In this document: positions 54,001 through 57,000 of the stretch, one piece after another
How the letters are laid out: each line of letters opens with the position of its first letter
Position numbering within the stretch: the stretch's first letter is position 1
Origin: Escherichia coli
Lineage (GTDB): Bacteria > Pseudomonadota > Gammaproteobacteria > Enterobacterales > Enterobacteriaceae
Assembly: GCF_003018255.1 (NCBI RefSeq)
Contig: NZ_CP027440.1
Direction: 5' to 3' (one strand)
Length of the DNA: 64,000 nt
Program-made: the position numbers

Positions 54001-57000
54001 GCCGCTACCAGAACCGCCGAAGGAGGTACGCCAATGACCTAGCCTGAAGCATTTGCAATTGTAGTGGCTGCCATTTCGATCGCACTGATTGTTTTTGCGA
54101 TTTGCCGCTGGGGGTAAAATAGTTCACCTGCATGGAGATTTGATGCCGGGGAATTGTGGGGGAGCATTCAAACCTCTCCCCTTCCCGGTTAAAGACTCCA
54201 TTGCTTTGCGGTCAGAGAGATACATCAGCTTCATCAGCTTAATGAAACGCATAGATCCGCCATGCTTTTTCAGCAAATACGCTGCCATTTGCGCAACTTT
54301 TTCTTCATTAAACATAAATCGGCTCTCTGTCTCACATGAAATACTCTTTCTGACTATATGTTAATAGCTCCGGTTATTACAGGTTAATGTGTGTTTATTC
54401 CTTAATCAGCCCCGCACTTCCGTACGGGGCCATTTCTGTTAATCCACTCCCACTTTTTTGTTGTACTCGCGGTTAAAGCGATCCACGGCAACCTTCATAT
54501 CCCGCTCTACCGATTTCACTATCGCCGCCTGCTGCGCCAGACTGAGAGAACTGTCGGCATAAATGGCATCACGCTGTTTACGCAAATCCTTCAGTCTCTT
54601 CCGGGTATCCTGCATAAGCCCGTTCATCGACAATTTTCCGTTGTTCTCGTCAATGAACGCCGTTCTTTCTGCACCGGTCAGACTCTTCAGCTCTGCGTGA
54701 TACTGCGCAATCTCTGTCATCCGGTCGTACATCTTCTGCTGGTCTGCATACGGCATCACCTCCCCCGAAATTTTCCCCAGGAAGGGCACCTGCTGTTCCG
54801 GTATATCAATACCATTCAGCGATTTCACCGCCGCATCCGTGGTTTTGGAAATGAAGCGCCCTGTCCCTCCGGAGATATAGTCAATCCAGAATTTCAGCGA
54901 TTCCGGTGTGATATCCACCGCGCCGGGACGGTACTGGCTGCCACCTGAGAACGCATTCAGCCAGGATGCAAACGCCTTGTACGCTTCTGGCGTTGAACGT
55001 CTTCCCAGCTGGCTGTCAGGTTTTGGTGTACCAAACGGCATGTTCTCCTGGTAAATCTGCGCCCCCATGAAGTTTTCATTCATGGCAAGGTTCGCAAACG
55101 GACGCAGAATGGTCGGCGCTGCATTTTTCAGCAATGCCCCGGACAGTGTTTCCGACGTTTCACTGCCCACAGGACTGAATGCCCCAAGCACACCACCAAC
55201 AACATTACCGGCAGCACGTGACGCCGTCAGGTCGCCCGCTGCCACACCTTCAGCGGTATGACCAAGCAGGAAGAAAACGTTGTACCCGTAGGGCAGAGGA
55301 ATACTCCAGTACTCCCCGGCCTTGCCCCCGAACATCGATTTCATAATGACGAGGTTACGCTCTTTCACATGAGACGGTACTTTGTCATACCAGTTAACCC
55401 CGTCATCATCCTCACCCGCCACACTGCGGTTAAGCGAGCCAAGCAGATAACCCGCTCCCACAGCGGCAAGCGCGATTTTCTGCGGTACATTCAGATTCTT
55501 CCAGCGAAGGCGCTCCGGTAACGGCCCCTCACCATTGAGATGCCCGAGCGTTCTCACCAGGTTTGCCGTCCCCTGAATGCTGGCGTTGGCGAACATGTAC
55601 AGCGAGTTCATCAGCGCCCCCTGCTCACCACGACGGTTAAAGTTCACCGTCATGTTTTTGGCAAGAGACGCCGCCTGCTGGCGTGACAAACCGGCATCAC
55701 GGGCATGTTTATAGGCAGAAAGACGCAGTGCGTTTTCAACCGCGCCGTTGGCATCCTCGACCAGGTTCAGGAACGAATTCCATGCACCGATACTCTGGCC
55801 TTTCCATCCCCCCTTCGCCAGCGATACAAGGCGATCCATTTCCTTCTGCTGGCCTTCAAGGTCACCCATGTTAAACCAGCCGGTTTTACCACCGTCCTCA
55901 ACAAACTCTTTCCACACCTTCTGCCACTGTGCACCTTTGCCCGTGAGGGTTTTACCCCGCAGACTGGCATACACGGCTGACATTGCTGAACGGCTGTCTT
56001 TCACCACGGCCAGCGCGGATAAGTTATCCAGCCCCTTCAGTTTGCCGTCACTCCTTCCCTGTTCAGCCTTCAGGTTCATCACCGCTGTCTGCACGTCACG
56101 GATGAAGTTACTGACCAGAAATTCCGGGTTATACGACGTGTTCACCGTTGCCAGGAATCGGTTAACTTTCCCCAGCGTACGAACGAAGGCGTTACTGGTT
56201 TCCGGTCCCATATTCTTCATCGCACGCATCAGACGCGGGTCATGGAGTTTGATGTAGTACGTTTTGCCGTTCTTTTTGGTGGTGAAGTAGCGATCTGCCA
56301 TCATTGCCATCGGCACCGGACGTTCAACAACTTCGCGACGGGTTTCACCGGTTTCCGGATCAACACGCTCTGCAATCGCACGCATGGTATCCGGTTTGTC
56401 ATCGGTGAATACCTGCCAGTAATCCCTTTCGGGATTATCCTGCACCAGTTTCAGGAAGGCGTTACCCACTTCATTTTTGCGATGGCGGATCAGCGATTCG
56501 CTCAAATCCTGTATCGCCTGCGTGGACGGAGACTGTGCACGGGATGCACGGCCCATCGCCTGCCTGCTTTCACGTCCGCCGATGGTGAAGCCCTTACCCG
56601 TGCGGGGCAGTGACACCACACCGTCAACATCCTGCCCTTTCAGGGGGACGTAGTAACGGTAGGCTTTCTGCCAGGCATCCACCACGCCGCTCTCTTCCAG
56701 TCCGGACTCACGGATAAGCTCACGACGACGGGCCAGCATATCGTCAACAATCCCTGCCAGACGGTCATACTGTGCCTGTTTGCCGCTGTTACGCACACGC
56801 TGCATGATTTCCGCCGCTTCCGCGTTGGTCATCCCCGAACCGCCGTCCGGCATTTTCGGGTTGATTTTCGCGATATGCGCGTTACGTTCCGGCGCGTGAC
56901 GGGCGTAGAGGTACTCATCCAGATCGGCCTGCGCAATCTTATAGTCTGCCAGCAATTTAGCCAGTGGCTGAACGTAGCGCTCCTTCATCACGTTCAGGTC

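Follow-up and report, generated by a model that had tools for sequence, protein, structure and literature searches.

Nine PanA/PanT pairs, that of P. moraviensis among them, were validated by Kurata et al. 2022 (PNAS; PMC8832971). The P. moraviensis pair is a toxin-antitoxin system in which PanT inhibits protein synthesis and co-purifies with PanA as a complex, and HHpred predicts this PanT to be of the EndoA/PemK/MazF type (PMC8832971). The N-terminus of P. moraviensis PanA had to be restored as MIFSEQKVAQ, and the GPV motif in strand β2 of PanA is required for neutralisation (PMC8832971). The closest validated relatives act by direct binding and belong to type II (Kurata et al., PMC8832971). 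In contrast to these type II relatives of the gene studied here, SocA of Caulobacter crescentus, which is also a PF13274 protein, is a ClpXP adaptor of type VI. No paper was found in the literature that treats Panacea together with Stx prophages.

The DNA analysed here is a 64-kb stretch (the window) from a 933W-like short-tailed Stx-type prophage. Whereas PanA/PanT of P. moraviensis occupies a chromosomal locus, the E. coli module follows a giant LPD gene in a Stx-type prophage, and the window keeps only codons 1-40 of the antitoxin and no toxin. A 63-aa ORF is present at this place. It is very probably a non-functional deletion remnant of panA, which came from a two-gene toxin-antitoxin (TA) module that has been lost, and one 864-bp deletion would account for it.

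The 63-aa ORF and its N-terminal likeness to PanA

The 63-aa ORF, to which the original prediction had drawn attention, was located in the ORF list on the minus strand (Table 1). It lies downstream of the giant gene on the same strand, 123 nt beyond the stop codon of that gene. Shigella phage POCJ13 matches the region at 98.5% identity, and the prophages of E. coli FORC_069 and 2009C-3133 match it at 100%. According to a protein-cluster look-up, the identical open 63-aa ORF is present on at least 1000 contigs. The same arrangement was found in 42 complete E. coli genomes, with ~100% identity among those sampled. Accession numbers of the 63-aa ORF and of a 91-aa version of it are WP_000481379/WP_000481378, and the 63-aa remnant has been assigned its own PHROG (3658, 'unknown function'). 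Two 'terminator-like' matches inside the ORF look like chance.

Table 1. Coordinates of the features at the locus, numbered along the window
Feature	Position	Strand	Basis
Giant gene, 2794 aa, LPD5/LPD1/MuF_C/LPD38 polyvalent protein	54439..62823	minus	ORF list and homolog annotation
Conserved leader, giant-gene stop to panA start	54316..54438	minus	DNA alignment
63-aa ORF, MFNEEKVAQMAAYLLKKHGGSMRFIKLMKLMYLSDRKAMESLTGKGRGLNAPPQFPGIKSPCR	54124..54315	minus	ORF list
Kept panA codons 1-40, MFNEEKVAQMAAYLLKKHGGSMRFIKLMKLMYLSDRKAME	54196..54315	minus	DNA match to intact allele, family profile
Perfect 9-bp tandem repeat, AAGCTGATG x2 (coding strand; KLM-KLM)	54223..54240	minus	Tandem repeat finder and alignment
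Deletion junction (scar), 1 nt microhomology (T)	54194..54195	minus	blastn blocks and junction comparison
Foreign ORF tail, SLTGKGRGLNAPPQFPGIKSPCR and stop, 23 codons	54124..54195	minus	Aligns to L016 5986 onward
Remaining former spacer, toxin gene to convergent DUF551 gene	54038..54123		Inside the 95.5% block
DUF551 gene, 308 aa, convergent with the 63-aa ORF	53111..54037	plus	ORF list, POCJ13 annotation

A PanA family profile was made from 15 full-length relatives, none of them from the window's locus, and searched against the six-frame translation of the 64-kb window. The profile matched the ORF through positions 1-41 of its 186, with an E value of 4.7e-20 (68.9 bits). In the rest of the window, read in all six frames, the next best segment reached only E 0.38, and the earlier statement that no continuation exists in other frames holds across the whole window. 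Compared with the validated P. moraviensis PanA, residues 1-40 of the ORF reach 62.5% identity (E 2e-18), and the alignment shows that all invariant N-terminal residues of the PanA family are retained. PHROG 1281, which represents the full-length family, matched the ORF at E 1.1e-4. The proposed N-terminal likeness is real, and these sequence comparisons confirm a resemblance to Panacea proteins far beyond chance.

Pfam, including DUF4065/SocA_Panacea (PF13274), gave no match to the 63 aa even at E ≤ 10, and NCBIfam gave no match to the ORF. The PF13274 model begins at about residue 27 (in the Yersinia homolog), and the fragment overlaps only ~14 positions at the start of the model. The two null results are explained by a fragment too short for the models and are not evidence against homology; the search with the DUF4065 profile, which had been put forward as a check, is too blunt for this ORF.

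The PanA homology stops abruptly at ...DRKAME, codon 40. The match had been thought to end after LTGK, but the residues SLTGK... belong to the foreign sequence. In the fragment 78% of PanA is missing, most of the Pfam domain included. The GPV motif is also absent from the remnant, since NKGPVLS corresponds to residues 54-60 of the intact allele and lies inside the deleted segment.

The intact allele, its partner gene and the 864-bp deletion

A look for a full-length version with a partner toxin gene in homologous elements had been put forward as a check, and such a version was found. The intact allele was traced via the protein-cluster look-up, which showed a 186-aa member, and the intact locus is present on seven contigs from draft E. 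coli prophages (L016-L019 and L022-L024). The order of genes is the giant LPD gene, panA (186 aa), a 5-nt gap, a 133-aa ORF and either a convergent DUF551 gene or the IbrAB cassette. The DUF551 gene is the far border of the lost module, and a DUF551 gene occupies the same place in L016. The 186-aa product of L016 panA matches PF13274 SocA_Panacea, and PGAP calls the Panacea gene 'Panacea domain-containing protein' or 'SocA family protein'. An intact 186-aa panA with a MazF-fold partner at the same locus in related E. coli prophages supports the proposal that the ORF is a remnant of a TA module.

The partner, which starts 5 nt after panA, has a MazF/Kid/CcdB fold with a MazF-like SH3-type barrel. 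It was identified by fold comparison only; Pfam, NCBIfam and PDB sequence profiles gave nothing significant. It differs from the MazF/Kid(PemK)/CcdB superfamily in an extra C-terminal helical part of ~35 aa, and its antitoxin is PanA, whereas those of the superfamily are MazE/Kis/CcdA. In every full-length close relative examined, panA is followed by a gene of 131-135 aa that overlaps it by 1-4 nt or begins 3-5 nt after it. Such pairs were found in Yersinia phage YeP2, a Klebsiella phage, a Salmonella prophage, Mixta contigs, Pluralibacter and Pseudomonas moraviensis. They were also found in an E. coli P2-like prophage and a Mixta genome, where the partner ORF is simply uncalled in the annotation. 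Beyond the seven E. coli contigs, the partner gene is present in 7 other genera.

The direct link to a validated system was made with the locus of P. moraviensis BS3668 (L025), in which PanA is located at 911-1501 and PanT at 1501-1899. PanA of the E. coli prophages shares 43% identity with P. moraviensis PanA across 185 aa (E 2.4e-52), and the E. coli partner is 35% identical to the P. moraviensis toxin over 124 aa (E 1.2e-28). The Pseudomonas toxin matched the partner profile at E 3.7e-55. In both the P. moraviensis locus and the intact E. coli allele the antitoxin comes first and has no extra N-terminal domain, and a MazF-like fold is common to the toxin and the partner. The E. coli N-terminus MFxEEKVAQ agrees with the restored MIFSEQKVAQ of P. 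moraviensis. The spacing of the toxin gene differs, with a 5-nt gap in the intact E. coli allele and a 1-4 nt overlap in relatives. Since both PanA and the toxin match those of P. moraviensis, the lost module belongs to the T6 class of PanAT systems. A link of the P. gergoviae pair to the T6 cluster of the paper is probable from accession numbers alone.

By homology, the lost module would have worked as a type II toxin-antitoxin. PanT probably blocks translation, probably as an RNase, and PanA probably binds and neutralises it. Such a module may have had a role in prophage maintenance or phage exclusion, as is suggested by what is known of such modules in general (PMC10440598). PADLOC has no model for a PanA-type protein or for the partner, so that a defence role is only what we infer.

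The two-gene module was found, at ≥80% coverage, in none of 5,426 complete E. coli genomes and in none of 50,697 phage records. Module fragments of some kind are present in 175 complete E. coli genomes, and the intact toxin was found on ~100 contigs of draft assemblies. Judged by its sequence, an intact putative PanAT pair is present in some E. coli prophages, and it is a candidate for prophage stabilisation or phage defence.

Comparison of the window with L016 by blastn gave two colinear blocks. Positions 54700..54195 correspond to L016 4616..5121 with 97.2% identity, and positions 54195..53996 correspond to L016 5986..6184 with 95.5% identity. Within the first block, the DNA of codons 1-40 is 97% identical to L016 5001-5121. 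L016 5122-5985, which is 864 bp, is missing from the window. This span takes in codons 41-186 of panA (440 nt), the spacer of 5 nt, the partner gene at its full 402 nt and a further 17 nt. The flanks are colinear and the internal gap has defined ends, as in a deletion pseudogene. The ends of the deletion share a single T, so the deletion was illegitimate and did not come from recombination between repeats. An origin of the intact allele by insertion into a sequence of the window type is implausible, given the match of the 40 codons to PanA proteins of distant relatives.

The tail of the ORF is former intergenic DNA from the 3′ side of the toxin gene; the stop codon of the partner gene is at L016 5968. 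In O104:H4 strains (e.g. FDAARGOS_403) the C-run in the tail is one C shorter, which gives the 91-aa ORF with an unrelated end. Unrelated tails in the 63-aa and 91-aa ORFs of near-identical prophages indicate that the tail is under no constraint. The partner profile had no match in the window in any of the six frames (best E 0.61), and no cognate toxin gene lies adjacent to the remnant.

We propose that an ancestral 933W-like prophage had a type II TA module just downstream of the giant LPD gene. Its first gene would have been panA (186 aa, a stand-alone Panacea domain extended at the C-terminus) and its second panT (133 aa, MazF/Kid/CcdB fold). By homology, PanT would be a toxin that inhibits translation, probably as an endoribonuclease, and PanA would neutralise it by binding to it directly. 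A single illegitimate deletion of 864 bp would have taken panA codons 41-186 with the GPV motif, all of panT and 17 nt further. It would have left the leader, the 40 panA codons and a 23-codon read-through into the former intergenic DNA. Toxin and antitoxin would have been lost together, a one-step loss that the cell could survive. The comparisons show the homology, the intact allele, where the deletion begins and ends, and the fold of the partner; we infer that the module acted as a TA/defence module in E. coli and that the remnant is without function.

Decay of the module in 933W and PhiR5_2

Phage 933W has two lesions compared with L016. The first is a 404-bp out-of-frame deletion in panA, by which codons 1-27 were joined out of frame to the 3′ part of the gene, so that KQQR and a stop follow them. 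The second is a 225-bp in-frame deletion in the toxin gene, which resulted in the annotated ORF L0135. On the toxin profile, L0135 covers positions 3-13 and 90-129; the invariant H-L-H, N, D and H residues are absent from it. The reading of L0135 as an unrelated small gene was rejected, since it is the toxin minus 75 codons. L0135 and the short ORF upstream of it (also VT2-Sakai H0151) are at the same locus as the remnant in the window and come from the same ancestral module, whereas the two deletions of 933W (404 bp and 225 bp) are independent of the window's single 864-bp deletion. The 31-aa stump of 933W is PHROG 28947, and L0135 is PHROG 1925.

In phage PhiR5_2 and 18 complete E. coli genomes the ORF runs on into a 174-aa protein that matches PF13274 with an E value of 2.4e-19. 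The PhiR5_2 gene (PGAP 'Panacea domain-containing protein') was tried as an intact reference and rejected, because it is damaged and the toxin is absent. PhiR5_2 and the two genome copies examined all have TAA at codon 9 and all lack 9 bp (KLM), and nothing partner-like follows the PhiR5_2-type panA copies examined. Prophages of the PhiR5_2 type remain colinear with L016 across panA and as far as 18 nt into the toxin gene, where the IbrAB cassette takes over.

Where the toxin is intact, panA is intact as well (seven of seven loci), and where the toxin is gone or gutted (933W, the PhiR5_2 type and the window), panA is damaged. This pattern is expected for a TA pair, because losing the antitoxin alone would be lethal. 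The loci form a natural series of TA decay in which loss of the toxin accompanied or preceded that of the antitoxin in every case.

In each of the three decayed lineages the leader survives together with 27 or more codons from the start of panA, and this retention could hint at a constraint on that DNA. In 933W-like phages the module has been inactivated at least three separate times, through the 864-bp deletion, through the two internal deletions of 933W/Sakai, and in the PhiR5_2 type through replacement of the toxin and a nonsense codon; only a minority of prophages, in draft genomes, still have it intact. This pattern might reflect selection against an active MazF-like toxin, for example one that disturbs induction or lytic growth, or the stumps might have been kept as anti-TA decoys. 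We regard this as unlikely.

Alternative readings of the remnant

The 63-aa or 91-aa product might work as a micro-protein. As an N-terminal piece of PanA (helix α1 and part of α2), it would have been kept for binding something, for example as a regulator, or as a decoy or dominant-negative that counters PanA/PanT systems in the host or in competing prophages. The ORF is open with its native start, it is unchanged on the at least 1000 contigs and ~100% identical in the genomes sampled among the 42, and it retains the most conserved N-terminal block of the PanA family. However, the high copy number is explained by clonal prophage spread, and most of the Pfam domain lies in the 78% of PanA that is gone, as does the GPV motif on which neutralisation depends (PMC8832971). 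The tails of 63-aa and 91-aa forms differ wholly between near-identical phages. The conserved block itself is eroded, with three further codons missing in POCJ13 and only 27 codons left before a frameshift in 933W. We consider a micro-protein very unlikely. A function of the stump's own retains a small residual chance, and the remnant is almost certainly non-functional, an ordinary pseudogene remnant.

The retained unit might instead be the DNA and not the ORF. The leader hardly differs between the window, POCJ13, PhiR5_2 and 933W. A 10-bp GC-rich hairpin without a U-tract was found at ~54408..54431, just past the stop codon of the giant gene, with an RNA folding z of -2.96. A strong hairpin at this place, together with a leader and at least 27 codons in every decayed lineage, would suit retention of 3′-end signals of the giant gene (a hairpin terminator or stabiliser), or of the promoter or operator of the old operon, with constrained deletion endpoints. 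The hairpin, however, is located upstream of the ORF, over 90 nt from its start, and leaves the retention of codons 1-40 unexplained. The breakpoints also differ, after nt 82 in 933W and after nt 121 in the window, as they would for independent random deletions. The promoter scan gave no sigma-70 promoter between the giant gene and the ORF, and Rfam gave only a sub-threshold match over 53000-55500, on the hairpin. We judge this reading to be highly improbable. Retention of the DNA is compatible with the dead coding function of the deletion remnant.

That the ORF arose by chance and its Panacea resemblance is coincidental is scarcely credible. The absence of a Pfam or NCBIfam match to the 63 aa would suit this reading, but it is refuted by the family profile (E 4.7e-20), by the 62.5% identity to P. 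moraviensis PanA, and by the 97% DNA identity shared with the 5′ end of the intact PF13274 gene that other prophages have at this locus.

With the deletion remnant as the preferred reading, three sets of 'hypothetical proteins' on hundreds to thousands of Stx-prophage contigs are debris of one PanA/MazF-like TA module. The three sets are the 63/91-aa ORF, the 31-aa stump of 933W and L0135, and they should be marked as pseudogenes and not as phage accessory genes. The locus adds a decayed case to a known family that experiments have characterised, and it is no new kind of system. The new points have annotation value only: the ORF, and L0135 with its upstream stump, are the debris of one module, and intact copies of this module exist.

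The 9-bp tandem repeat in the kept codons differs in copy number between the phages. The KLM unit is present in a single copy in POCJ13, 933W and PhiR5_2. Intact alleles and distant homologs have the two-copy length, as KLMKLM or KLMKLL. A new duplication in the window was considered and rejected, since the intact alleles and the distant homologs are equally long. The two-copy length indicates that the window has the ancestral state and that the others lost a copy by slippage. The copy was lost more than once, because POCJ13 shares the window's 864-bp deletion.

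Decay of the module in other prophages

The 933W ORF L0135 is a copy of the MazF-fold toxin PanT with an internal deletion: a 225-bp in-frame deletion has removed the conserved core, and a panA stump of 31 codons lies immediately upstream. The counterpart of L0135 in VT2-Sakai is H0151.

In PhiR5_2-type prophages the 174-aa Panacea protein is an orphan antitoxin. The toxin gene is reduced there to 18 nt, adjoining the IbrA/IbrB cassette. Codon 9 of this panA is TAA and a 3-codon deletion shortens the conserved helix; translation may still be possible from Met10.

Positions of the features discussed, on the window and on related phages and prophages
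Feature	Sequence	Position	Strand	Description
L0135	phage 933W (L001, AF125520)	2234-2422	minus	62 aa, long annotated 'hypothetical protein'
Orphan antitoxin	PhiR5_2 (L003)	2061-2612		174 aa, 'Panacea domain-containing protein'
Orphan antitoxin	L004 and L005 (PhiR5_2-type)	4039-4580		174 aa, as above
Partner (toxin) ORF	L009	4525-4941		full length, missed by gene finder
Partner (toxin) ORF	L010	4549-4956		full length, missed by gene finder
Stump ORF variant	E. coli O104:H4 FDAARGOS_403 (L020)	310-585		91 aa
42-aa ORF	window	54039..54167	minus	
DUF551 gene	window	53111..54037	+	308 aa, adjoins scar
DUF551 gene	intact-module prophage (L016)	6143-6940		265 aa
Hairpin	window	54408..54431	minus	10-bp GC-rich stem, GGAA loop; directly 3' of giant-gene stop
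Giant gene	window	54439..62823	minus	2794 aa, polyvalent LPD5/LPD1/MuF_C/LPD38 protein

The O104:H4 variant and database annotation

The C-run in the stump tail, the 23 codons beyond the deletion scar, is one base shorter in O104:H4 strains than in the window, so that the stump reads on in the frame that the 42-aa ORF uses in the window, giving a 91-aa product. This product is WP_000481378, a 'hypothetical protein', and its ORF stops directly beside the 3' end of DUF551, the convergent gene.

Wrong starts and missed genes are common for the panA-panT module. The uncalled toxin ORFs on L009 and L010 match the partner family profile with E values of 5e-57 and 8e-67, respectively, and elsewhere the panA start is annotated at Met22 (165 aa) or Met10. 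Decay products of this one module are split over separate PHROG families of 'unknown function', with the 63/91-aa stump in 3658, the 31-aa 933W stump in 28947 and L0135 in 1925.

Genes and structures flanking the scar

The accessory cassette on the DUF551 side of the scar is also mosaic. Past the 3' end of DUF551, the window and the prophage with the intact module (L016) align in short patches only (window 53830..53784 with L016 6300-6345), while the corresponding cassette of 933W holds hokW/sokW and a YgiW-like gene instead. On the other side, the hairpin that follows the giant gene is kept in the window, Shigella phage POCJ13, PhiR5_2 and 933W. Lacking a U-tract, it may act as a terminator or as an RNA stabiliser. 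In some E. coli prophages (L004, L006) the giant gene itself carries a frameshift or is split by insertion sequences.
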